Notes: generated by a model not told the origin, from the letters alone. A stretch of DNA of 64,000 nt from Patescibacteria group bacterium (GCA_041737355.1 JBGSRW010000006.1:3246-67245), one strand, 5' to 3'. Counted from the stretch's first letter, positions 10,922-60,212 are shown. A program made the numbers and translations.

Positions 10922-11008
10922 GCCGATGTGGCGGAACTGGCATACGCGTGCGACTCAAAATCGCATTCCCTTACGGGATTGTGGGTTCAACTCCCACCAT
11001 CGGCACCA
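10922..11008 (+). tRNA. tRNA-Leu (anticodon CAA) with a long variable arm
   Basis: Acceptor GCCGATG/CATCGGC, anticodon loop cTCAAaa, T arm GGTTCAACTCC, encoded ACCA. Confidence 0.8.
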
Positions 11009-11073
11009 TAGCCCTTGCCAAAAAATAAATTTTGGTGTATCTTTAAGGATAAAGCCGCAAAAAATAACATTAT

Positions 11074-11148
11074 AGCGGGGTGGAGAAGTAGCATCTCGCC
11101 TGGCCCATAACCAGGAGACCGCCGGTGCAAATCCGGCCCCCGCAACCA
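11074..11148 (+). tRNA. initiator tRNA-fMet (CAT)
   Basis: Near-identical to the E. coli tRNAfMet 3' half (GGTGCAAATCCGGCCCCCGCAACCA). Has a 1-72 mismatch and a CAT anticodon in CCCATAA. Confidence 0.75.
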
Positions 11149-11178
11149 AAATTTATAGGATTATCATAAAATGCCCAG

Positions 11179-11254
11179 GGCTGGGTAGCTCAGTTGGTAG
11201 AGCGTGGGACTCATAAGCCCGAGGTCGTGGGTTCAATCCCCACCCCAGCCACCA
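11179..11254 (+). tRNA. elongator-type tRNA with a CAT anticodon (Met or lysidine-Ile)
   Basis: GGCTGGGTAGCTCAGTTGGTAGAGC...CTCATAA...GGTTCAATCCCCACCCCAGCCACCA; perfect acceptor stem. Confidence 0.8.
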
Positions 11255-11265
11255 AAAGAAAAAAT

Positions 11266-11727
11266 ATGCTTCTTTCAATACATGCCGCCGCAGGAGCCCT
11301 GATCGGCCAACAAACCAATAATCCCATCCTTGCCTTTATTTTGGGCTTTGCTTCTCATTTCGCCTTAGACGCTGTCCCCCACGGCGACCAGGACTGGATT
11401 GAGGATTATAAAGGAGACGATAAATCCAGAGCCAAAAGAATAATCTTTCTTGTCGGTCTGGATGCCGTTATATTGCTCGGTCTCCTGGTTTCCCAATTTT
11501 TTTACAGATCCCTGACACCAACCCTGAATATTGCCTCCGGAATACTCGGCGGAATACTTCCCGATTTTCTTGTAGGGTGCCACGAATTATCGGACAAACT
11601 TTTCAAAAATTTCTATCAATTGCATTTTAAAATGCACGATCTGCTTAACATAAAACAGCCGTCGACAGTTCAGGGAATTGTTTTTCAGGCCGTAGTTTTG
11701 GGAATACTGCTTATCTTTGCATTTTAG
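11266..11727 (+). CDS. small hypothetical integral membrane protein
   Basis: The ORF-track start at 11194 lies inside the tRNA. The first ATG after the tRNA is at 11266; hydrophobic segments. Confidence 0.5.
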   Translation: MLLSIHAAAGALIGQQTNNPILAFILGFASHFALDAVPHGDQDWIEDYKGDDKSRAKRIIFLVGLDAVILLGLLVSQFFYRSLTPTLNIASGILGGILPDFLVGCHELSDKLFKNFYQLHFKMHDLLNIKQPSTVQGIVFQAVVLGILLIFAF

Positions 11728-11736
11728 ATCGGTGCG

Positions 11737-11768
11737 TAATAACAAAAAATCCGGATAATTTCCGGAAT
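11737..11768. terminator. bidirectional terminator (near-perfect palindrome aaaaatccggataatttccggaatttttt)
   Basis: Hairpin with T-runs on both strands between the convergent genes. Confidence 0.65.
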
Positions 11769-11787
11769 TTTTTATTATACAATAAAT

Positions 11788-12996
11788 TTATTTTACTGCC
11801 CGTTTGTAAACCTCCAATGTTTCCCGGGCGCACTTAGCCCAGCTAAACTCCTTCGCCTTTAACATTCCTTTCTCCCCGAGTTCCAGCCCAACGCTACGCT
11901 CCGACAAAACTTTTTTCATAGCCATTTCAATTGTTTTAATATTTATCGGATCGACGAGAATTGCTCCATCCCCCGCCAACTCCGGCAAGGAAGACGTATC
12001 GGAAGTAATTGTGGGAACTCCGAGCGACATAGCCTCAAGGACCGGCAAACCGAATCCTTCGTAGAGGGAGGGGAAAACAAAACACGAGGCATAACTGATA
12101 AGGGAAAATTTTTCCTGGCCGGGTATGTATCCTATATATTTAATCTTATTCTTTCCCCCCAAAATTTTGTTGCACTTTTCTATTTCTAAAAAAATTTTTT
12201 TGTATTTCCAGCCTTTCGCCCCAGCCAAAACAAGCTGATATTTTTCTCCAATCGCCTTGTTATTAGCGGCAAGACCGCAAAAAGCCCTAACCAGGGCGGC
12301 GATATTTTTTCTTGGCTCAACGGTTCCCAAAAATAAAATGTAATCTTCTTTCAACCCATATTTACTTTTAATATTTTTTGGACAAATTTTCCCTTCCGAT
12401 CCGCAGACGTCGTCATCTTTTGACGGCAGATTTTTGAATTCCACCCCTTCGTAAACCACGTCTACTTTGTCCGGCTTAATTTTAAAAATTTCCGCAATAT
12501 CTTTCTTGGTATTTTTTGAGACAGCGATAATCCTGGACGCCTTTTTCAAACTTTTTGGCACCAATATTTTTTTAGAAAATTCCTGCCCCGCTAAAAATTT
12601 TGAGGGGAACCATTCGGGATGTTTATAAATTGCCAAATCGTGTACGGTCACAACCGACTTTCCCTTGTAAGCCAGGGGAAGTGTGTAGGCCGGGGAATGG
12701 AAAATATCTAGTTTCTCCTTGTCCAGGGCGGCGGCGACCAGAATATGGGAAAAAGCAATCGGCAAATAATGTTTATAGCGGTGAAAGGGGAAAAATTTCG
12801 TCTCCGCGTTCGGGGCGACGGAGATAATTTCCCGAGCCGCTTCCCGGGATAATAAACTGTCAAAAAATAAAATATACCTATTTTTTTTATCCAGTTCGAG
12901 AAGATTCTTCACTAGATAATAGGTATAATGCCCGATTCCGGCGCCCTCTCCGTAGCCCGGATTTAAAATTGTACGGCAATCTATGCCAATCCTCAT
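11788..12996 (-). CDS. glycosyltransferase family 4 (GT-B fold)
   Basis: C-terminal EGFGLPVLEAMSLGVPTITSD motif. The likely start is MRIGIDCR (the ORF track extends to 13023). Confidence 0.8.
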   Translation of the reverse strand: MRIGIDCRTILNPGYGEGAGIGHYTYYLVKNLLELDKKNRYILFFDSLLSREAAREIISVAPNAETKFFPFHRYKHYLPIAFSHILVAAALDKEKLDIFHSPAYTLPLAYKGKSVVTVHDLAIYKHPEWFPSKFLAGQEFSKKILVPKSLKKASRIIAVSKNTKKDIAEIFKIKPDKVDVVYEGVEFKNLPSKDDDVCGSEGKICPKNIKSKYGLKEDYILFLGTVEPRKNIAALVRAFCGLAANNKAIGEKYQLVLAGAKGWKYKKIFLEIEKCNKILGGKNKIKYIGYIPGQEKFSLISYASCFVFPSLYEGFGLPVLEAMSLGVPTITSDTSSLPELAGDGAILVDPINIKTIEMAMKKVLSERSVGLELGEKGMLKAKEFSWAKCARETLEVYKRAVK

Positions 12997-20080: not shown

Positions 20081-20167
20081 AGCTTCATTGTACCAAAAAT
20101 AAGGCTTGGTGTAAACCCCGTTAAAAGTGTGTTTTCAAGGACAAAATTACTCTATTTCGGTATCAAA

Positions 20168-20196
20168 AAACCCCGCCATTTCTGGCGGGGTATTTC
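20168..20196. terminator. rho-independent terminator downstream of the 156-aa gene
   Basis: Hairpin ccccgcca-tttc-tggcgggg followed by a T-rich tail on the minus strand. Confidence 0.7.
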
Positions 20197-20220
20197 GATA
20201 TAAGTTGACGGAAATTATTT

Positions 20221-20691
20221 TTAAAGTTTCCCGAGAGCGTTCGAGATTTTTTCAAGCCCTTCTTGTGCCCTCTGAATCTGTTCTTGATAAATTTTTTCTC
20301 CTTTTTCCAATATTTTTTTTGTTTCCCCGATTCCGGGTATATCATATGTTTTATGCCAGTCCTCATCTGCTATAGAAAAATGAGAGATCGAATGCAGCGC
20401 CTCTCCGGAGTCAAGGATTCTAATTTTTTCAATTGTCTCCCAATTGATTGGAATTTTTAGTGTTGAGGGACTATCCAAAAAATCTTCACATTCATCGAAT
20501 ATCTTTGCCGCCCTTTCTTGCGTGCCTTGCCTTCTTGCCTTGTCCCACACCTGTCTTTCCCCAGTCGCGCCAAAGTGCTCTTGCAGCCAACGGATTTCTT
20601 GTGCCAGTCTCTGAAAAATAGCTGGCTCTGATTCGGTCTTATCTCCCTGAACTCCCTCGGGAGCCCCTCCTCTTTCCATATTTTTTCCCAT
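20221..20691 (-). CDS. hypothetical 156-aa acidic protein (module copy B gene)
   Basis: ORF preceded by the conserved (AG)10 leader module. Its N-terminus (MERGGAPEGVQGDKTE) loosely resembles the copy-A protein N-terminus (MNGEGRFSPESAAGQGTKKT). Confidence 0.55.
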   Translation of the reverse strand: MGKNMERGGAPEGVQGDKTESEPAIFQRLAQEIRWLQEHFGATGERQVWDKARRQGTQERAAKIFDECEDFLDSPSTLKIPINWETIEKIRILDSGEALHSISHFSIADEDWHKTYDIPGIGETKKILEKGEKIYQEQIQRAQEGLEKISNALGKL

Positions 20692-20770
20692 ATTTTAAAA
20701 ATTAATAATTATCTCTTCCGCTTCCTATAGTACTCTCTCTCTCTCTCTCTCTGATTTGCAAGCCCCAATT
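20692..20770 (-). promoter_or_regulatory. conserved leader/promoter module copy B: TTGCAA ... (AG)10 ... TACTAT ... GGAAG ... TAATTATTAATTTTTAAAAT ATG
   Basis: (CT)10 at 20733-20752 on the + strand; same flanks as copy A. Confidence 0.6.
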
Positions 20771-21478: not shown

Positions 21479-21936
21479 TAATTTATTTTGTTCAAATCTC
21501 CGTCTAAAATAATCGGCTGCATGGCCAGCATTTCATCTTTATATCCCATCTCGGGTACCGGATTTAAAAGAAAAATCTTTTTATCTAGAACATGAGCGAA
21601 AGCCATTTCTAAAAAAGAATTCCCGCCGACATAGTTTGGTGCGCCGTGCCGCTCGCCGTTTAGAACTAAAATGGCATCACCTTGTTTTATCTCTTCAAAA
21701 TACTCCTTAATCAACCCGTATTTAACTTTATTGGCAGCCGACTCGTTGTGCATCTGTTCCAGGGTCGCCATTTCGGCGTATTCGTGGGTAAAGCGCGGCA
21801 AAATTACTTTATGGCCGAGATACAGTAATTCTTTTTCCGCTTCCACCATTTCCTTGGCAAAAGTCATGCTGCCGCAAACAACAATTTTCATATTTTTATT
21901 TAATTTCCTCCCACTCCACTCCTGAACTAAAAACAT
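21478..21936 (-). CDS. nucleoside 2-deoxyribosyltransferase-like (YtoQ/DNPH1-like) protein
   Basis: The MKIVVCGSMTF...ILPR pattern and short length resemble this family. The start may be the internal MKIVV at 21891. Confidence 0.45.
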   Translation of the reverse strand: MFLVQEWSGRKLNKNMKIVVCGSMTFAKEMVEAEKELLYLGHKVILPRFTHEYAEMATLEQMHNESAANKVKYGLIKEYFEEIKQGDAILVLNGERHGAPNYVGGNSFLEMAFAHVLDKKIFLLNPVPEMGYKDEMLAMQPIILDGDLNKIN

Positions 21937-21959
21937 TTAATTCCTGACTGTGTTGCTCT

Positions 21960-22208
21960 TTAGTTGCCCTCAATTGTGGCAAATCTTTTTTGCTCTATTG
22001 GTTTGCGTGGATCATCGAGAAAAGCTTTTAACTTTCTGGCGACGAATATATCTTTCCAGTCTATTTTGATAGCAAGCGCTGGCTCTTCTTTCAATGTCCT
22101 CAAAAAATCGTAAAAATCAATAGAATCCATTGCTAAAAATTCCGAGCTAATATCTTTCGGTTTAGATTCTTTTTCTGGCGTGAATCCCGCCTCTATTTTA
22201 TCTTTCAT
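21960..22208 (-). CDS. hypothetical 82-aa protein
   Basis: ORF only. Confidence 0.35.
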   Translation of the reverse strand: MKDKIEAGFTPEKESKPKDISSEFLAMDSIDFYDFLRTLKEEPALAIKIDWKDIFVARKLKAFLDDPRKPIEQKRFATIEGN

Positions 22209-22228
22209 AAATTTATTGATTAGCAGTA

Positions 22229-24499: not shown

Positions 24500-25792
24500 T
24501 TATGGTTTTAATCTGTTAATCATTCTCGGGAATGGAATTGTTTCCCTGACATGGTGTACGCCGCACATCCAGCCGACGATGCGCTCAAGACCATAGCCAA
24601 AACCCGAATGCGGCACCGAGCCGTATTTTCGGAGATCCAAATACCATTGGAAATCGGCAAGCGGCATTTTTTCTTCCTTCATCCGGGAAAGCAGCAAATC
24701 ATAATTGTCTTCGCGCTCCGAACCGCCGATAATTTCGCCGTGCCCTTCTGTCGCGATTAAATCCGAACCGAGCACTACTTCGGAATTTTGCGGATCGCGT
24801 TTCATGTAGAACGCCTTAATCTGCCGTGGCCACTTTTCCACAAAAACCGGCACGTCGGAATCCTGCGTCAATAAAGTTTCGTCATCGGCGCCCAAATCAT
24901 CGCCGTCTTTAATATCGGAGCCGAGCGATTGGACTTTTTTAATCGCATCATGATAAGTCATCCGGACAAACGGCGCTTTTATTTTTTCTAGCTTGCTTAT
25001 ATCCCTTTCCAAAATTTCTAATTCTTTTCTGTTCGTTTCCAGAACTTTTTTAACAATATGGCAAATTAATTCTTCCTGGATTTTCATATTCTCTTCGTGA
25101 TGCACAAATGCCGCCTCGGCGTCCATCATCCAGAATTCGGTAAGGTGCCTACGGGTTTTTGATTTTTCTGCCCGGAAAGTCGGGCCAAAATCAAAACACC
25201 GGCCGAAACTCATAGCCGCGGCTTCAAGATAAAGTTGCCCTGACTGCGCAAGATATGCCTTGCCCAAATCAAAATATGGAACCTCAAACAAAGTTGTTGT
25301 TCCCTCGCAGGCAGTAGGCGTCAGAATCGGCGTATCAATTTTTATAAAACCGTTCTGGTTAAAATATTCGTAAGTCGCGTTAATTACCGTATTACGGACG
25401 CGCATGGTTGCCCATTGTTTTGAAGAACGGAGCCAGAGGTGGCGTTCGTCCAACAAAAATTCCGGACCGTGCTCCTTTTTCCCGATCGGGTATTCCTCGG
25501 CAACCTGGACGATTTTTAAATTTTTTACCTGCAGTTCGTATTCTTCTTTTTTCGGGTGCTTGCTGACTGTGCCAACAATTTCCACCGAGGTCTCGATGGT
25601 GATTTTTTGGCAGGCCTCCCAAGCTTCAGCCGGCGCTTCGTTTTTCGAGACAATTGCCTGGATAAAGCCCGAACCGTCGCGGACCTGCAAAAAGAAAATG
25701 CTCCCCGAGGAACGGAAATTATAAATCCAGCCTCGAACCGCGACTTCCTGGCCTAAAAATTGGCTGATATCTTTCAATAAAATGGTTTGCAT
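24500..25792 (-). CDS. asnS: asparaginyl-tRNA synthetase
   Basis: FRAEKSKTRRHLTEFWMMDAEAAF is characteristic of AsnRS; 430 aa. Confidence 0.8.
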   Translation of the reverse strand: MQTILLKDISQFLGQEVAVRGWIYNFRSSGSIFFLQVRDGSGFIQAIVSKNEAPAEAWEACQKITIETSVEIVGTVSKHPKKEEYELQVKNLKIVQVAEEYPIGKKEHGPEFLLDERHLWLRSSKQWATMRVRNTVINATYEYFNQNGFIKIDTPILTPTACEGTTTLFEVPYFDLGKAYLAQSGQLYLEAAAMSFGRCFDFGPTFRAEKSKTRRHLTEFWMMDAEAAFVHHEENMKIQEELICHIVKKVLETNRKELEILERDISKLEKIKAPFVRMTYHDAIKKVQSLGSDIKDGDDLGADDETLLTQDSDVPVFVEKWPRQIKAFYMKRDPQNSEVVLGSDLIATEGHGEIIGGSEREDNYDLLLSRMKEEKMPLADFQWYLDLRKYGSVPHSGFGYGLERIVGWMCGVHHVRETIPFPRMINRLKP

Positions 25793-25842: not shown

Positions 25843-25868
25843 ACCGACTGGCTTGGCCAATCGGCGTG
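25843..25868 (-). terminator. terminator at the left edge of the GC-rich island
   Basis: Hairpin ccgactggc/gccaatcgg followed by a T-run on the minus strand. Confidence 0.5.
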
Positions 25869-25879
25869 TGTCTCCCCTC

Positions 25880-26074
25880 CTAATGTACTGCCTTCTTCTT
25901 ACCTTGCCGCTCAGCCCGGGCCCTGCGGATGGTGTCAATTGCCACCCAGCCCAGAAAACAGAGCGGAACGACGGTAGCGACCGCAACACCAGGCGTCTCG
26001 GAGAGCGCCAGACCGATTGTGGCGGCGACTCCGCCAAGAAAGAACAAGCTGATCAGAATGGCCAAGACCTTCAT
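25880..26074 (-). CDS. small 2-TM membrane protein with a basic C-terminal tail (GC-rich island)
   Basis: 64 aa, two hydrophobic helices, and an AAGAGAGGG SD. Confidence 0.5.
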   Translation of the reverse strand: MKVLAILISLFFLGGVAATIGLALSETPGVAVATVVPLCFLGWVAIDTIRRARAERQGKKKAVH

Positions 26075-26085
26075 TCTGCCCTCTC

Positions 26086-26385
26086 TTACTCCGCAGCTTC
26101 CGCGCGGTCATTTTCCGCCTTGATCGCTGCCAGTTCTTGTTTAAATTCATCGAGCCAACGCTTGGCCTTGAAGCTCGCCTTCACGAGCAAAATCAGCCAC
26201 GCACCAACAAAAGCGATTGGAAGGGTGATGACCAAAAATAACCACCAGCCCATTCCCCCGACGATGAAATCCCAACCGGCGATCCCAACGCACGCCCAGA
26301 TAAGCGCGGCCAGAATAAGCGCGAGCCACGGCGGGAAAAGCATGCCAATGTTCAGCTCGAGATCCTCTTTCTCGTTATCCATCAT
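26086..26385 (-). CDS. small 2-TM membrane protein with an amphipathic charged C-terminus (GC-rich island)
   Basis: Start chosen at ATGATGG behind GGAGGGG (the ORF track extends to 26451). Confidence 0.5.
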   Translation of the reverse strand: MMDNEKEDLELNIGMLFPPWLALILAALIWACVGIAGWDFIVGGMGWWLFLVITLPIAFVGAWLILLVKASFKAKRWLDEFKQELAAIKAENDRAEAAE

Positions 26386-26436
26386 CCCCTCCTTCTGTCT
26401 AAACCTTACCAAAAAATTACAAAAAGTCAACGTCTC

Positions 26437-26465
26437 TTGACGAAAAGGCATAAAAGTAATAATCT
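26437..26465 (+). promoter_or_regulatory. sigma70-like promoter TTGACG-N17-TAATCT for the 399-aa gene, overlapping a short inverted repeat
   Basis: Read directly from the sequence. Inverted repeat: GTCAACGTCTCTTGAC. Confidence 0.5.
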
Positions 26466-26534
26466 AAAAAATACTGTATCTGAAGATAGCTACTCGGGAT
26501 TTGGCAGGTATGGGGGCAAAAAGGAGGGAGTTCT

Positions 26535-27734
26535 TTGAAAAAGCAGATCGTTACGGCTTATGGTAAAACTTCTCTTGATGTAAGGCAGCTTCCCGGGGCG
26601 AACATCTTCGTCTCGCTGGAAAAAGCCATTTTCCCGACGGAAAAGAAAAAGCCCGGAGAAAAACAGCAAAGGGCGGAAATCCCGGCGGGAGCCATTCTCC
26701 TGCCCCATTGGAGCGGTTCCGGTTTCAACGCCCAGCGAGGTTACGTTGTCTACGCAAACGGCCTGTACGAGGCCCTGCGGGCGACAACGCACATCTTCTT
26801 CGGCTACGGAACTCGCGGCAACAAAGGAGAACTCCAGACGCTCGAAACGATGTCGAGACAACTAATCGACATCGTTTCCGTTCTGACTGCTGGCAAGGAA
26901 GCCGGGAGCAACCGGCTAACGGCGGTCCAGACCGAACTTGCGGTTATGGCCGAAGAAATGGCCGCGGTCCTGAACCAGACAAAACGCGAGGCCAGGGACA
27001 AAATCGACGCCTCTAAGGCGCTCGAAGTTTCCCATCCTTCCGGAAAGATGGTTCAAAATCTTCCGGCCAACGCGGTACGTCTTGCGGCCGCCCAACGGCG
27101 CATCGAACGGCGCCAAGACGAGGTGCGGAGAATCGCCGCCCGGCTCGTTTCTTGGGAACAGGTTCTGGCCTCAGAAATCGGCCGGACGTGGGATGCCCTG
27201 AATTGGTTTCGCAAGATGATCGACTCCGAAACGAAGCGCCTCTCGGGCCGATGGACGGACAGGGAGAGGGATGTTTTCCTCAACCGCGCCGGCTGGGCCA
27301 AGGCGCATCTTCTCCCGAGCATCGATGCCGAACCTTTCGTCAAAACCGCGCGCCTCATCCGGCGCGATCTTGGCCAGGCCATGTCTGCCGCTGGCGAGCA
27401 GGAGAAGGATAAGGTGGCCGTGGCGCTGAACCGCATCCTCGCCTCGCTCCGCTTCAAGGACGCTCAGCGAGCCTTTGAAGAAAAAATCCTTCTGCCTTTT
27501 TCCGTCCGACAGGAACTCGGTATTTTGACGCAAAACGACATGAGGCATTTTCGGGGCTGCACCGAAAACTTCCGGGAACGCCTGACCGTTTTGTCGGACC
27601 AGGGTTTCGCGAGTCCGCGCAAAGAGGAAATCATCATCCGCCTGAAACTCGCCGTGATCGAAATTGACCGGCTTGGCGTTGACGGTGCCGAGATCGTAAA
27701 AGACGCGCTGAAACGCGCTTCTCATCTGCTTTAG
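26535..27734 (+). CDS. hypothetical 399-aa GC-rich orphan protein
   Basis: TTG start 6 nt after AAGGAGGGAG; about 58% GC; terminator downstream. No motif recognised. Confidence 0.6.
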   Translation: MKKQIVTAYGKTSLDVRQLPGANIFVSLEKAIFPTEKKKPGEKQQRAEIPAGAILLPHWSGSGFNAQRGYVVYANGLYEALRATTHIFFGYGTRGNKGELQTLETMSRQLIDIVSVLTAGKEAGSNRLTAVQTELAVMAEEMAAVLNQTKREARDKIDASKALEVSHPSGKMVQNLPANAVRLAAAQRRIERRQDEVRRIAARLVSWEQVLASEIGRTWDALNWFRKMIDSETKRLSGRWTDRERDVFLNRAGWAKAHLLPSIDAEPFVKTARLIRRDLGQAMSAAGEQEKDKVAVALNRILASLRFKDAQRAFEEKILLPFSVRQELGILTQNDMRHFRGCTENFRERLTVLSDQGFASPRKEEIIIRLKLAVIEIDRLGVDGAEIVKDALKRASHLL

Positions 27735-27744
27735 CCAAAAATAC

Positions 27745-27830
27745 GCAGCACCCTAAAAAGTGCTGTTTTTTTATAAAAAAAGACCCAACTATGCTTGGTT
27801 GGGTCGAGAAACGTTAACACCTTACCCGCT
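27745..27830. terminator. pair of convergent terminators (cagcac...gtgctg-T7 on the + strand; gacccaacc...ggttgggtc-T7 on the minus strand)
   Basis: Two hairpins, each with a T-run in its own orientation. Confidence 0.7.
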
Positions 27831-27834
27831 CTTT

Positions 27835-28827
27835 CTAGAGCGGTGTCCTCACTCCTCCGAAAGGATCGTCTTCCCAGAGGAGATAATACAGCAGAGCTGT
27901 CCTCATCCACATGCCATTCCGTTCCTGACGCCAGATTTTGATGCGAGGGTCACGGTCGCAGGCCGGCTCAAGCTCTCCCCGCCTCGGCAGAGGATGCATG
28001 ACAATCGAGTGCGGCCTGAGAATCTTAAGATGTCGCTCCTGAAAAAAGAAGGGGGTAGCCCCTTTCTCTTTGTCAAAATCATCCTGGACGCGAGTCATAT
28101 AGACCGCGTCAGATACCGCCACGGCTGCCTCAAGATCTTCCGTTTCCTCAAACAGGATATTGTGCTTGCCGAGGAAATCCTTGATGTCTCCCTCCATACG
28201 ATAGGCTGGGGGAGAAACAAAGATAAGACGAACACCGGGGTAGTGCTTCATGAAGTAAGCGAGAGACCGGACTGTCCGGCCACGCTTCAGGTCCCCGGCC
28301 ATGGCAATAGTCTTGCCTTCAATCCCGCCCAACTCACGAAACTCACGATGCAATGTGTAAATGTCAAGCAGAGCTTGTGTCGGGTGCTGATCCTGGCCTG
28401 AACCGCCATTCACAATATGAGCCGCATGCCATGATTGGCGCACCCTCTCCCGGTCGAAGTACTCAGCTGCTTCCTTGGCAAGACCAGCATGAGGCGAACG
28501 CATAATGATGACGTCCGCATAAGACGCAAAAGTCGCCAGAGAATCAAGAGGCGTCTCGCCCTTAACTTCCGACGAAGTATTCGCGTCACGAATCTCAACA
28601 CAGTCCATCCCCAAATTCTGACAGGCAGACATAAACGAAACAAATGTCCGCGTCGAAACTTGGGTGAAGTACAGCGCTGCCCGCCTGTTTGGGAAAAGCT
28701 TCTTCAGTCGCAAAGCGCCGTCAGTTGTCTGAAATGCCTCCCTGATCTTCGTGGTCAGATTGCAAAGGTAGTCGAGTATTTCGCGGTCAAATTGCTGAGA
28801 TTCAAGAACATGGTAGAGACGCTTCAT
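27835..28827 (-). CDS. pyrB: aspartate carbamoyltransferase catalytic-chain-like transcarbamylase
   Basis: STRTFVSF (carbamoyl-phosphate loop, variant of STRTR), HPTQ, GDLKRGRTVRSL, TRVQ and HPLPR motifs. Start at MKRLYH behind GGAGGA. Confidence 0.7.
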   Translation of the reverse strand: MKRLYHVLESQQFDREILDYLCNLTTKIREAFQTTDGALRLKKLFPNRRAALYFTQVSTRTFVSFMSACQNLGMDCVEIRDANTSSEVKGETPLDSLATFASYADVIIMRSPHAGLAKEAAEYFDRERVRQSWHAAHIVNGGSGQDQHPTQALLDIYTLHREFRELGGIEGKTIAMAGDLKRGRTVRSLAYFMKHYPGVRLIFVSPPAYRMEGDIKDFLGKHNILFEETEDLEAAVAVSDAVYMTRVQDDFDKEKGATPFFFQERHLKILRPHSIVMHPLPRRGELEPACDRDPRIKIWRQERNGMWMRTALLYYLLWEDDPFGGVRTPL

Positions 28828-28867
28828 CGCCCGTCCTCCTTTCCTCCCCTTGCTCGGGTGCAAAAAA

Positions 28868-28900
28868 ACGGCGGAGGATTCCTCCACCGCCGCTTCGTGT
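28868..28900 (-). terminator. terminator after recO at the right edge of the island
   Basis: Minus-strand hairpin cggcggtggagg/cctccgccg followed by ttttttt. Confidence 0.55.
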
Positions 28901-28922
28901 CAACGTTCTAAAAAGAAGAATA

Positions 28923-29684
28923 TCAAAGTTTCAAAACCCGTGTCAAATAATTTATCCACAAGCCGCTTTTCGGTTCACGGTCGCTGTGGACCGCTAAAAA
29001 GCAATCAATGATCGCGGCTGTTTCCTTAAGCTGTTTTTTACTAATTTTAATTGCCGGAAAATATCCCGAATCTTTTTTCAAAACAAAGCGTAAAATTTTT
29101 ATTCCCGCCGCAGAAATGGGAATCCCCTCTCTGCCGCATTTTTTGCAAAATAATCCGCCACGTGCTGCATCGAAAAAATTCCCCTCCGGAACTATTTTAT
29201 TTTTGCATTTTAGGCAACTGTAAAGTTCCGGTTCCCATCCCAGAATGGACATCAATTTTATAATAAAAAATTTTGATAAAGCATAATTATTCAAAAATTT
29301 TTTTTCTTCCGAACCGTTCAAGATATTTAAAAATTCCCCGATCAACGCATAAATTTTATAATCCGGATGTCCGGGTTTGGTAAAATTGTCGACCGCTTCG
29401 AGACAAAAGCTTCCGAGCACCGTCTTCGCCAGATCTTTTCGGATATTAATAAATTTTTTTCTCTGATCGGCTCCGGCAATCTGGTAGTATGTTTTCCCAG
29501 GCGCGACCATAAGGTCGATCTCGGAAAATAGATCAAGATGCCCGGCCATTTTACTTTTTATTTTTCTTACTCCTTTGGCAATCGCCTCTATTTTTCCGAA
29601 CTCATCGGTATAAATTATAAAAAGACGATCGTTTTCACGATAGTCATTTTTTTTCAAAATTATTCCTCTGGCTTGGCGGGTCAT
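28923..29684 (-). CDS. recO: DNA repair protein RecO
   Basis: N-terminal OB fold (GIILKKNDYRENDRLFIIYT) and C-terminal zinc motif CLKC...CKKC. Confidence 0.85.
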   Translation of the reverse strand: MTRQARGIILKKNDYRENDRLFIIYTDEFGKIEAIAKGVRKIKSKMAGHLDLFSEIDLMVAPGKTYYQIAGADQRKKFINIRKDLAKTVLGSFCLEAVDNFTKPGHPDYKIYALIGEFLNILNGSEEKKFLNNYALSKFFIIKLMSILGWEPELYSCLKCKNKIVPEGNFFDAARGGLFCKKCGREGIPISAAGIKILRFVLKKDSGYFPAIKISKKQLKETAAIIDCFLAVHSDREPKSGLWINYLTRVLKL

Positions 29685-48730: not shown

Positions 48731-49315
48731 TTACTTCTTCTTGTGCAAGACAAGCCAGGCGATGAGACCGGAATGGAACAACCCCTCGATTGGGTGCAGC
48801 CTCACCACGCGCAGAGGGTTGTGGCAATCCCAGTAGCCGTTTCTCCCAAAGACCGGGACGACTGATTGTTCGGAGCGGCGCCATTCCGTGGGAAGGACGA
48901 GCGAACAGCGGGTCTGGATATCGGGATTTTTGGAGATGAACTGCATGCCCCGACGCGGGCCGCACCTTCGATATCCCTCATTATTCAGCCGGCGAACAAT
49001 CTCGTCTCCATGGAGACCGAGAGCCAAATTTGCAAAACTATACTGATGAACTTCCCAGTCGTCTTCGTCCGGCGCGATTGGCTCCAGAGGAAAACGCGAT
49101 TCGTTGAAATCGGCGTCGATTTCGTCCTGCCGGCAAGCGTCAAAAAGTCTTTGCCAGGCTGAAGGAACCATCTCGCTAATGAGCGCACGCCGAAGTCCGT
49201 CGGCCAGATCCTGCGGCCGATGAAGCCAGTGCTGAACCCGCTCAGACGAAAGATCGCGTGGCAAAGCGCGGAGCACTGCCTGCTCAAACTCCTCCCCTCG
49301 AGATTCTTCACTCAT
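48731..49315 (-). CDS. hypothetical 194-aa GC-rich orphan protein
   Basis: About 55% GC; own promoter TTGACA-N16-TAAAAT at 49338-49365; an AGGGAG SD. Contains a weak Rx4H motif (RVVRLH). Confidence 0.55.
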   Translation of the reverse strand: MSEESRGEEFEQAVLRALPRDLSSERVQHWLHRPQDLADGLRRALISEMVPSAWQRLFDACRQDEIDADFNESRFPLEPIAPDEDDWEVHQYSFANLALGLHGDEIVRRLNNEGYRRCGPRRGMQFISKNPDIQTRCSLVLPTEWRRSEQSVVPVFGRNGYWDCHNPLRVVRLHPIEGLFHSGLIAWLVLHKKK

Positions 49316-52487: not shown

Positions 52488-52802
52488 CTAGCAGCCGTGG
52501 CCAGTCACCTTTCCCCAGCCGGAAACTTCTTCGTTGGTAAGTGGTGGCGAGTTGCTCACTTTCCCCTCAGAGCCTGCCTCAGGCTCTGCGCGTTTGGTTG
52601 TCTCGCTCTCGCCAGCCGACGTAGGGGGGATACCAAGAAAATTCATATCGTGCCCAATCGGCTCGGCAAAGATTCTGCCGAGAAGATCAACCTCTTCGTC
52701 TTTCGTCATCTCGTGCTTGCCAAGTTTTCTCTCTCTCGCTTCCCGCCGTAGACGGTCCGCCCGCAGTTCAATAGGCCGCTTTTCTTTCCCTATCCCGCTC
52801 AT
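52488..52802 (-). CDS. hypothetical 104-aa GC-rich orphan protein
   Basis: AAGGAGGAG SD 4 nt before the ATG; about 55% GC. Confidence 0.5.
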   Translation of the reverse strand: MSGIGKEKRPIELRADRLRREARERKLGKHEMTKDEEVDLLGRIFAEPIGHDMNFLGIPPTSAGESETTKRAEPEAGSEGKVSNSPPLTNEEVSGWGKVTGHGC

Positions 52803-58578: not shown

Positions 58579-59571
58579 CTAACCCGAGAGCCGGACCGAC
58601 GGAACGAGCCGGCGGTACCTTGCCCGAAGCTTACCGTTCAGTGCGGCATTCCGGGGAAGGCCTCGGACCAAGAGTTCGATTCTCCCGCTTACAACGTGGC
58701 TTCTTACCTGGAGCACTTCGTTGGAGCCCTCTCTTTCGTTGTAGGCAGTCCGGAGACAGACCGGTTCGTCCTGATCGAGGATGTCGCAGGAGATCTCCTT
58801 CATGACTACCCAGGCAAGCAGATACTCCTCAAGCGAGAGCACCTCCCAACCAGCGGGCGCCTGCCGCTCGAATTCGCTGAAGTTCTTACCATGCCGCGGC
58901 GCGCTTCCGCCGATCTCCGCCCAGAACCAGTAGCCTTCGCTTGTGGGAGAGAAGGCAATCCAGCTCCTGTCTCCCTCCCGCAGGGTCGAATGGCCTCCGA
59001 GGCCGATGGCCTCCATCAGTCGGCCGTAGGAAACCTTGACCTCTGGCGGCCGGTAGATCAGCTGTTTGTTTTCCCCGCAGCCGGTCTCGAATTCCTCGGC
59101 CGTAATCGCCGCCCTGGGTACCTCGATACCGTTGAAGTCGTAGAGGCGGAAGAGATTCTCCGCGGTCTGCCGCCAGTTTTCCACGGGGTCATCAGTTGCC
59201 GCAGAGGGCGGAACCGACGGACATATCCGCCTGGCCACCGTAGCCGTTTTGGGACGAACATCTTCCGACTCGCCCACGAACTGTGCCGCCGCAAGCTGGA
59301 TATCGAGCTCCGCTACACGCGTGCGGAGAAGCTCGAGTTCCTCGCGCTCTTCCGGCTTGAGCTCCGGACAGACGAGCCTCGTCGATTCGGAATCGGAGGT
59401 GTTGCCCTCCAGAGCCGCTTCGATTGCCAACTTGAAACCGCGAAGCGCGATCTCCGCCGTCATTTCCTTACGTTCAACCAAGTCGCAAAGACGCTGCCAC
59501 CTGCCGGCCATCCGCTCCATAAGAGCGAGATCGGCAAGAAGCTTGTCGATTCTCTTCGGGTCTCTTTCCAT
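58579..59571 (-). CDS. hypothetical 330-aa GC-rich orphan protein
   Basis: GGAGGAGGAAGG SD; a TTGACA promoter at about 59640-59674; about 58% GC. Confidence 0.55.
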   Translation of the reverse strand: MERDPKRIDKLLADLALMERMAGRWQRLCDLVERKEMTAEIALRGFKLAIEAALEGNTSDSESTRLVCPELKPEEREELELLRTRVAELDIQLAAAQFVGESEDVRPKTATVARRICPSVPPSAATDDPVENWRQTAENLFRLYDFNGIEVPRAAITAEEFETGCGENKQLIYRPPEVKVSYGRLMEAIGLGGHSTLREGDRSWIAFSPTSEGYWFWAEIGGSAPRHGKNFSEFERQAPAGWEVLSLEEYLLAWVVMKEISCDILDQDEPVCLRTAYNEREGSNEVLQVRSHVVSGRIELLVRGLPRNAALNGKLRARYRRLVPSVRLSG

Positions 59572-59720: not shown

Positions 59721-60158
59721 TTACTTTCTTTCGATCTGCTTCCGGCCGGAAGCCCTTGCCCAGCTGCCGCTCGAGATCTCCCCGCCGACCGCGTTGCCGG
59801 CCTTTTTCCTCGGCAAAATCTTTTTCCTAATATACCCCAGGCAATGCTCACTCATTTCGCGCTCAAATTCCTGCCGTCGGGCGGGAAAATTTCTCCACTC
59901 GGCAATGACTCTATCGCATGGCCAACAGAGCTTGTCCGTATTGTACATTGCAAGAGTCGCTCCGCAGCATTCGCATCTCCGTCTACCCGGAATAGTTGGA
60001 AGCGACTGAACGGTCTCGGAGATTTTGTCCTCGCCGTCCGTCTCAGTAAGAGACGCTGTTTCGGGCAAATTTTTCTCCGATGAAACGGGCTCGACGGACG
60101 TCTCGACCGTCTTCGGCTTTTTGGAAAACCCTTCTTTGTCTTTTATTTTTCTCGACAT
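59721..60158 (-). CDS. hypothetical GC-rich protein with a CxxC...CxxC zinc ribbon
   Basis: Start at MSRKIK behind GGAGGAG. Motif CECCGATLAMYNTDKLCWPC. Confidence 0.5.
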   Translation of the reverse strand: MSRKIKDKEGFSKKPKTVETSVEPVSSEKNLPETASLTETDGEDKISETVQSLPTIPGRRRCECCGATLAMYNTDKLCWPCDRVIAEWRNFPARRQEFEREMSEHCLGYIRKKILPRKKAGNAVGGEISSGSWARASGRKQIERK

Positions 60159-60212
60159 TTTCTCTCCTCCGTCTAACTTTAATGATTCTGCCCGAAAAGT
60201 CAATTCAACAAA

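Follow-up and report, generated by a model that had tools for sequence, protein, structure and literature searches.

Between asnS and recO, two core housekeeping genes of a Patescibacterium that stand in their normal order, lies a block of about 3 kb whose composition departs sharply from its surroundings. It raises a key question: is this a foreign cassette that one genome acquired recently and on its own, or one state of a locus whose contents vary among many relatives? The locus lies in a window of 64,000 nucleotides (GCA_041737355.1 JBGSRW010000006.1:3246-67245; positions count from its first letter), where the block occupies 25,853-28,900 and holds four genes. These encode a PyrB-like aspartate carbamoyltransferase (ATCase; pyrB), a protein of 399 amino acids (aa), and two small proteins, tm99 and tm64, with two predicted transmembrane (TM) helices each (Table 1). 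A preliminary description of the window had taken the block for a horizontally acquired or otherwise foreign GC-rich (guanine plus cytosine) cassette. The island and its open reading frames (ORFs), including the 399-aa frame with its TTG start, are confirmed here and the block is compositionally foreign, but it is neither private nor recent: pyrB, the 399-aa gene and tm64 are found in the same slot of relatives. We consider it probable that the block is the version, in this genome, of a small flexible genomic islet of the replacement type, whose fixed slot is bounded by the recO terminator on one side and the asnS promoter on the other.

The block has a GC content of 54.3%, compared with 44.5% for the remaining window (z = 4.7, the reference being the other 3-kb windows, with a mean of 0.445, a standard deviation of 0.021 and a maximum of 0.504). 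The rise had been given as about 42% to about 58%; the rise itself is real, but as an average this figure was somewhat too high, and the highest local values, 0.59-0.615, fall within the 399-aa gene. Rather than sharing a uniform k-mer signature with the contig, the 26-29 kb interval has the most atypical tetranucleotides of the window, its composition-normalised correlation with the remaining sequence being 0.778, where the median is 0.899. In the four island genes, GC at the third position of two-fold codons (GC3) reaches 0.53-0.71, against 0.375 ± 0.047 in a background set of 60 genes of the window (z 3.3-7.1); overall gene GC is also outlying (z 3.1-5.2), and codon positions 1 and 2 (GC12) are raised as well (z 1.5-3.7). 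Because the excess is present in two-fold GC3, amino-acid content alone does not account for the difference. At four-fold sites the shift is weaker, and pyrB has none (0.53 versus a background of 0.56). The relative synonymous codon usage (RSCU) of island genes correlates with that of the island genes of other genomes (r 0.63-0.85) and also with that of a 65% GC genome (L088; relatives are named here by their locus numbers), whereas the correlation with the core of their own genome is only -0.40 to 0.36 across genomes, and 0.14-0.36 in the window. By all three measures, GC, codon usage and tetranucleotides, the block is foreign in composition. The ratio of nonsynonymous to synonymous divergence (dN/dS) is 0.07-0.26 for all island genes and for their companion modules in other genomes, so these are real, constrained proteins under purifying selection.

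Is the island confined to this genome? A search with AsnS retrieves Patescibacteria metagenome-assembled genomes (MAGs) labelled Komeilibacteria, Falkowbacteria, Uhrbacteria and Magasanikbacteria, and the gene order adk-map-ruvX-recO-asnS-aspS is widespread. Among distant relatives in which recO precedes asnS, the gap between the two is at most 300 bp in 14 of 32 loci, and this adjacency makes an empty slot the probable ancestral state. The preliminary description had proposed looking for an empty locus in sister genomes; the slot is empty only among distant relatives, while in every relative with AsnS at least 86% identical it is filled with GC-rich genes, and the contents vary. At least six layouts occur in the clade of the window (the Komeilibacteria/Falkowbacteria-labelled MAGs): recO-pyrB-asnS (L085, L086/87); recO-pyrB-(RNase-J-like beta-CASP)-asnS (L005); (RNase-J-like)-399aa-asnS (L001/L090), with the same RNase-J-like and 399-aa pair in L092, whose short contig does not show asnS; recO-DUF5701-399aa-asnS (L003, L004, L094); recO-DUF5701-399aa followed by a tm99-like gene and tm64, then asnS (L093); and recO-pyrB-399aa-tm99-tm64-asnS in the window itself. 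In each of these clade loci the slot genes have a GC content of 0.51-0.62 versus 0.30-0.46 for the flanks. The same genes thus do stand at this locus in relatives, but they are GC-rich there too and not native-like in composition. No RNase-J-like or DUF5701 gene is present elsewhere in the 64-kb window. In GC-rich Uhrbacteria-like genomes the slot holds unrelated fillers of ~1 kb with native composition.

The edges of the slot are sharp. At the left junction (alignment A5, nine genomes), homology comprises asnS, its promoter and an A/T tract, and then stops; at the right junction (alignment A4, seven genomes), it stops straight after the recO terminator and 'CCTCCGCCGTTTTTTTG.ACCC'. Since homology between genomes ends at these two points, the island extends over ~25,843-28,857. 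The preliminary description had bounded the block by hairpin terminators, all of which are present, but the one at 28867-28891 is not part of the island: together with 'TTTTTTTG.ACCC' it is kept in the seven genomes of alignment A4 whether pyrB or DUF5701 follows, and it is therefore recO's own terminator and belongs to the flank. The boundaries in composition coincide with gene ends, and the adjoining core genes have no GC spill-over (GC3 0.39 for recO, among the lowest in the window, and 0.515 for asnS).

The syntenic PyrB orthologues are 76% (L005) and 77% (L085) identical to that of the window (76-78% overall for these two genomes) and 67% identical in L086; L005 and L085 share 82.5%, and each of the three shares 66-68% with L086. 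This rank order matches that of recO, ruvX and aspS across the four genomes, so pyrB is not a recent arrival: either it was already in the slot in the common ancestor of the four, or it has travelled with recO and ruvX. The 399-aa gene recurs in seven further loci (L001/L090, L003, L004, L092, L093, L094), adjoining asnS in all of them but L092. Its products form two allele groups, I (window, L001) and II (L003, L004, L092, L093, L094), with identities of 60-72% inside the groups and 37-41% between them; a homologue in L002, which lies beside gyrB at near-native GC, is as distant from each group as the groups are from each other. The window and L093, with AsnS 96% identical, hold different groups.

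L093 is the nearest genome to the window (besides AsnS, AspS is 95%, Lon 92% and SecY 94% identical), and it has DUF5701 at the position of the window's pyrB. DNA identity is ~0.88 over a stretch that reaches from lon past asnS and the intergenic region to tm64 and the 3' portion of tm99, so that homology reaches 300 bp into the island; at ~26,160, within tm99, identity drops from 0.87 to 0.53, stays at 0.5-0.6 beyond, and is 0.65-0.83 from the recO terminator onward. The tm64 homologue in L093 is 84% identical, whereas that of tm99 is 34% identical overall and shares only the C-terminal 'AAIKAENDR.EAAE'. Synonymous divergence (dS) is 0.53 for asnS, 0.34 for tm64 and 0.81 for aspS on the left side, against 1.31 for recO, 1.34 for map and 1.60 for secY on the right. 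The break in identity together with the step in dS would place a recombination junction within the island. For RecO, map and pyrB, the window's resemblance to L093 or L085 is no greater than to relatives further away, and this comparison suggests that the pyrB side was imported, along with the core genes next to it, from a more diverged relative.

From the composition, gene content, synteny variants, incongruent divergences and purifying selection observed at this locus, we infer a mechanism based on recombination and a GC-rich donor pool. The slot would be filled by independently translated modules, each with an ORF preceded by a Shine-Dalgarno sequence (SD) and followed by a hairpin terminator; those seen are the pyrB-like ATCase, the RNase-J-like beta-CASP nuclease, DUF5701, the 399-aa protein and the pair of 2-TM proteins, and they would come from a gene pool richer in GC than the host cores (~37-45% GC). 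Homologous recombination, its crossovers falling either within the islet or in the conserved sequence on each side, would let related genomes gain, lose and swap modules, and no site-specific element would take part. In the window, pyrB would share the history of the adjacent recO and ruvX, and tm64 with the 3' portion of tm99, at the left end, would share the far younger history that asnS and aspS have with the closest relative; given these differing histories of its two ends, the islet would sit on a recombination junction. If so, streamlined, ultra-small Patescibacteria, poor in mobile-element machinery, still turn over accessory genes via tiny fixed slots between essential genes. The results of programs that call islands should be read with the caution that a marked GC anomaly need not mean that the acquisition was recent or private.

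Which documented system does the islet resemble? In its behaviour it appears closest to the replacement flexible genomic islands described in other bacteria, which are exchanged by homologous recombination and show peaks of substitution where they border the core (Lopez-Perez, Martin-Cuadrado & Rodriguez-Valera 2014, PMC4033161). As in these, the slot lies at a fixed place between core genes in all members of the clade, with different or divergent contents, and no recombinase was found; divergence, mostly synonymous, may also be raised at or near the borders (here dS 0.3-0.8 on one side and 1.3-1.6 on the other, with the break inside the islet). It differs in size (1-4 genes on 1-3 kb, where theirs span tens of kb), in being GC-richer than the core where theirs are poorer, and in being compared across MAGs at species or genus level instead of strains of one species. 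Nor are its genes recognisable as genes of surface glycosylation or exposed structures: it has two small membrane proteins, but the 399-aa protein lacks TM segments and pyrB belongs to cytoplasmic metabolism. Genomic islands with mostly intra-phylum horizontal gene transfer (HGT) have already been reported from groundwater Patescibacteria (mSystems 2025, PMC12455944). These too are compositionally atypical blocks in streamlined genomes of the candidate phyla radiation (CPR) and were attributed to HGT, but that survey predicts islands per genome (IslandViewer/MetaCHIP) and does not present a conserved slot with alternative GC-rich contents; its text contains none of the words 'carbamoyltransferase', 'pyrimidine' and 'hotspot', and neither the gene set of the island nor the 399-aa family is described in it. 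The islet matches the compositional definition of a horizontally derived island, by composition and by patchy presence among relatives, and differs from the integrase type in having no integrase, tRNA insertion or att repeats.

Several points weigh against a replacement-type islet. The asymmetry of the L093 flanks runs at least 7 kb rightward and may reflect a large recombination unrelated to the islet; the step in dS at the border is seen between fairly divergent MAGs, and over 7 kb the divergence on the right never falls back to that on the left. The sister loci are mostly short metagenomic contigs, and end-to-end layouts are available only for L005, L085, L086, L093 and L094. What we say below of promoters and attenuators consists of consensus matches only. 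No donor lineage for the island was found: the closest PyrB of native composition (L088 8001-9005, between queA and rpsB in the 65% GC genome GCA_041643055.1) is only 61% identical, and L088 is a candidate for the sort of GC-rich source from which pyrB could have come. Moreover, in each of the four syntenic genomes the GC3 of pyrB exceeds that of its flanks by +0.08 to +0.32, even though dS between them is 1.3-2.2. If a donor signature is simply decaying, the donor must have been very rich in GC or the approach to host composition very slow, and the longer-than-expected persistence of the excess makes a maintaining force possible.

Such a force is the core of an alternative in which the genes are native to the clade and vertically inherited, their GC being kept high locally by GC-biased gene conversion at a recombination hotspot or by selection on mRNA or protein. 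Besides the persistent excess in the four pyrB orthologues, the slot is evidently recombinogenic, the excess is partly driven by amino acids (the GC12 values above), and the window's pyrB is not enriched at four-fold sites. Conversion as the only cause is disfavoured by the absence of spill-over into recO or asnS, the boundaries being gene ends. Outside the slot, beside ligA, argS/tyrS and gyrB, members of the 399-aa family have GC at or near native in three of four cases (L095, L096, L002), so the protein itself does not require high GC; modules that are not homologous to each other (DUF5701, RNase-J-like, TM pair) are all GC-rich; and since contents differ between close relatives, gene flux would be needed anyway. 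We regard local maintenance as unlikely, though not without weight.

A bolder proposal, which we put forward tentatively and hold to be decidedly unlikely, is that GC-richness, instead of being a donor signature that fades, marks a distinct accessory gene pool circulating among AT-rich Patescibacteria and kept GC-rich by repeated re-import from GC-rich partners or hosts, or by some bias. The slot of the 399-aa gene would then be a locus of diversifying selection, with deeply divergent alleles (~38-40%) kept at one slot in near-identical backgrounds, for example for the interaction of these episymbionts with host cells or phages, and four other islets of the window would be of the same kind.

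Could the block instead be a degraded or cryptic mobile element (a phage remnant, an integron-like array or a defence island) that has lost its recombinase? Modules of one ORF plus a hairpin, stacked and variable in content, some apparently promoterless, do recall integron cassette arrays, and small TM proteins and proteins of unknown function are frequent in phage and defence loci. The hairpins, however, are canonical terminators with typical T-tracts, and one module stands on the opposite strand with its own putative promoter. No att- or attC-like repeats were found at module borders in a generic repeat check, and neither intI nor attC-like repeats turned up in the generic repeat and Pfam checks, although no dedicated intI/attC search was made. 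No gene of the window has a PHROG or PADLOC match, and PADLOC also has none for the companion modules; the sole PHROG match, to the L005 nuclease, is a generic metal-dependent hydrolase. The 399-aa protein has no relative in IMG/VR, INPHARED or PLSDB. Pfam and NCBIfam searches found no recombinase domain among the four island ORFs, whose neighbours are housekeeping genes, and no integrase was found in ~20 kb around the slot of any well-covered locus. No tRNA lies near the block (ARAGORN; the window's tRNAs are only at 10.9-11.3 kb and 52.2 kb), and flanking direct repeats amount to chance-level imperfect matches of 12-27 nt, none of them at the two junctions. The preliminary description had likewise found no integrase, direct repeats or tRNA site. 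A mobile origin is accordingly very unlikely.

A single recent cassette, private to this genome, has in its favour the atypical GC, codon and tetranucleotide composition, the adjacency of the flanking genes in many relatives, and the exact layout of pyrB, 399-aa gene, tm99 and tm64, which no other fetched locus shares. It is hardly tenable in view of the syntenic pyrB of L005, L085 and L086 with identities congruent with the flanks, the further 399-aa loci, and tm64 and 300 bp of shared sequence in L093; moreover, dS of island genes between genomes is at least 1, so the residence is old. A chimera of assembly or binning, in which a GC-rich foreign fragment was joined into an AT-rich contig, would explain the abrupt steps at both ends, but its chance is practically nil, because the same junctions flank GC-rich genes in at least 10 independent assemblies (ENA, JGI, Logan and NCBI samples) and align base for base between them.

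Table 1 Features of the islet and its flanks (promoters are putative; all were read from the sequence at consensus level)
Feature	Position	Strand	Characteristics
asnS	24500-25792	-	ORF; left flank
asnS promoter	25832-25804	-	TTGATT-17-TATAAT; conserved
Terminator of tm99-tm64 unit	25843-25865	-	intrinsic; 10-bp stem, T-tract; left island edge
tm64	25880-26074	-	64 aa; two predicted TM helices; GC 0.58
tm99	26086-26385	-	99 aa; two predicted TM helices, C-terminal amphipathic tail; SD GAAGGAGGGG
Divergent promoter region	26425-26465	both	
tm99-tm64 promoter	26430-26425 (-35)	-	TTGACT, N13, TGG-TAAGGT
399-aa gene promoter	26437-26442 (-35); 26460-26465	+	TTGACG, N17, TAATCT
399-aa gene	26535-27734	+	SD AAGGAGG, TTG start; GC 0.574, GC3 0.67; allele group I
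Terminator of 399-aa gene	27745-27766	+/-	bidirectional hairpin; terminator scan
Terminator of pyrB	27782-27805	-	terminator scan
pyrB (ATCase catalytic chain)	27835-28827	-	330 aa; ATG at 28827 after GGAAAGGAGG; GC 0.53
recO terminator	28867-28891	-	11-bp stem, T7; part of the flank
recO	28923-29684	-	ORF; right flank

What kinds of proteins does the islet encode? The 399-aa protein had been described as an orphan, but a profile search of 1.84 billion representatives yielded 206 clusters at E ≤1e-3 and 69 at ≤1e-10, most of the relatives listed being full-length (~350-440 aa); a word-indexed search had given four relatives only, and its 60-sequence profile version one more. The protein is a member of an uncharacterised Patescibacteria family of ~400 aa. 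Its gene has a dN/dS of 0.15-0.24, and the TTG start and SD are the same in the five loci aligned. The AlphaFold (AF2) model based on a 60-sequence alignment (predicted local distance difference test, pLDDT, 95.6; predicted template modelling score, pTM, 0.90) predicts an N-terminal beta domain (~residues 1-75) followed by long helical bundles. This model has no significant structural match in PDB or BFVD (in the latter, none at E ≤0.001), and the protein has no Pfam, NCBIfam, PHROG or PADLOC match. A widespread family with a confidently predicted fold that is structurally unmatched is a lead worth following.

PyrB has both carbamoyltransferase domains, OTCace_N (PF02729, 6.4e-28) and OTCace (PF00185, 1.6e-22). 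It scores 219 bits with TIGR00670, under the equivalog cut-off of 236.95, but ATCase models rank first, more than 100 bits above those of ornithine carbamoyltransferase (OTCase), and the best PDB matches are plant PYRB and the ATCase domain of CAD (~1e-55). As in TIGR00670 proteins, the motifs HPTQ, GRTVRS, TRVQ and HPLPR are intact, and equivalents of K84 and R105 are present in an alignment with Arabidopsis PYRB. It departs from them in having STRTF for STRTR, which the L005 orthologue shares, a 10-residue insertion following the R105 region, and a recO terminator instead of a PyrR site upstream. The protein most likely produces carbamoyl-aspartate. The clade is generally thought to lack de novo nucleotide synthesis, and no further pyr gene adjoins the window's pyrB (dN/dS 0.07). 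A lone, slightly divergent ATCase conserved beside recO is a second lead.

The two small proteins have no Pfam, PHROG, PADLOC or NCBIfam match. The hydropathy peaks of tm64 (dN/dS 0.26) are at residues 3 and 28, and the longest form of the tm99 reading frame extends to 26451.

Another question is how these modules would be transcribed. The terminator of the tm99-tm64 unit lies directly upstream of the conserved asnS promoter, and the 399-aa gene and pyrB end in convergent terminators (27745-27805). The SDs quoted in the preliminary description, the TTGACG-N17-TAATCT promoter and GTCAACGTCTCTTGAC are all present in the sequence, and in sister loci the 399-aa gene is preceded by TTGAC(A/G)-N17-GATAA (alignment A2); the promoters assigned to the 399-aa gene, the tm99-tm64 unit and pyrB are putative. 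The inverted repeat GTCAACGTCTCTTGAC, which had been suggested as an operator, has arms of 5 bp only, a chance-level length, and consists of TTGACG on the plus and TTGACT on the minus strand, that is, two -35 boxes back to back; it is not conserved in sister loci, and we reject the operator.

Nor does pyrB appear to form a leftward transcription unit of its own, as had been claimed: only ~25 nt separate the recO terminator from its SD, which leaves no space for a promoter, and pyrB is therefore probably transcribed from upstream, by read-through of the recO terminator or from a promoter-like TTGACA-N16-GATATT in the last codons of recO (28917-28946, minus strand; 10/12 matches, conserved in seven genomes). 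The latter would initiate ~20 nt upstream of the recO terminator hairpin, and pyrB or DUF5701 would thus receive a terminator-containing leader. A pyrB-specific attenuator or PyrR site at this hairpin was rejected, as the same hairpin precedes DUF5701 elsewhere and Rfam gave no match in the block.

Two further observations concern the 399-aa gene. In L001, L003, L004 and L094 (alignments A2 and A5), a hairpin AAAACCC(N5)GGGT abuts the AAGGAGG SD and could be a translational control element; it is missing from the window's leader. The window's coding sequence holds, at 26844-26878, a perfect inverted repeat of 13 bp around a 9-nt loop, GAAACGATGTCGA...TCGACATCGTTTC; by a rough estimate its chance for the region is ~2e-3, and none of the seven homologous genes examined has it. 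A distant member of the family lies between argS and tyrS in L097, a Patescibacteria-like contig of ~51% GC. On the same contig, at 10947-12922, two adjacent genes, one of them Eco57I-like, have a GC of only 0.31-0.33; this pair is an AT-rich insertion of restriction-modification type, opposite in compositional direction to the island studied here.

Elsewhere in the window, four more GC-rich ORFs (48731-49315, 52488-52802, 58579-59571 and 59721-60203, all on the minus strand; GC 0.51-0.61) have two-fold-codon GC3 with z of 3.5-7.0 and RSCU correlated with that of the island genes (r 0.70-0.78), each standing alone between housekeeping genes (enolase, tRNA-Pro, leuS, gdh). Pfam, PHROG, PADLOC and NCBIfam gave no match for any of them, there is no paralogy among the window's GC-rich proteins, and the 330-aa ORF of the four has a 35%-identical stretch in L006. 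Their presence suggests that the genome is peppered with similar GC-rich islets.

Relative to L093, the window has two insertions at native GC, 20124-20760 and 21924-22223, the first of which holds a 156-aa ORF (20221-20691) with no family match. Finally, many public MAG records that carry a Patescibacteria-type AsnS (65-72% identical) and gene order (L008, L013-L015, L018-L021, L028, L030 and others) are titled 'uncultured Gammaproteobacteria', 'Deltaproteobacteria', 'Pseudobdellovibrionaceae' or 'Cloacimonetes', and are probably mislabelled.

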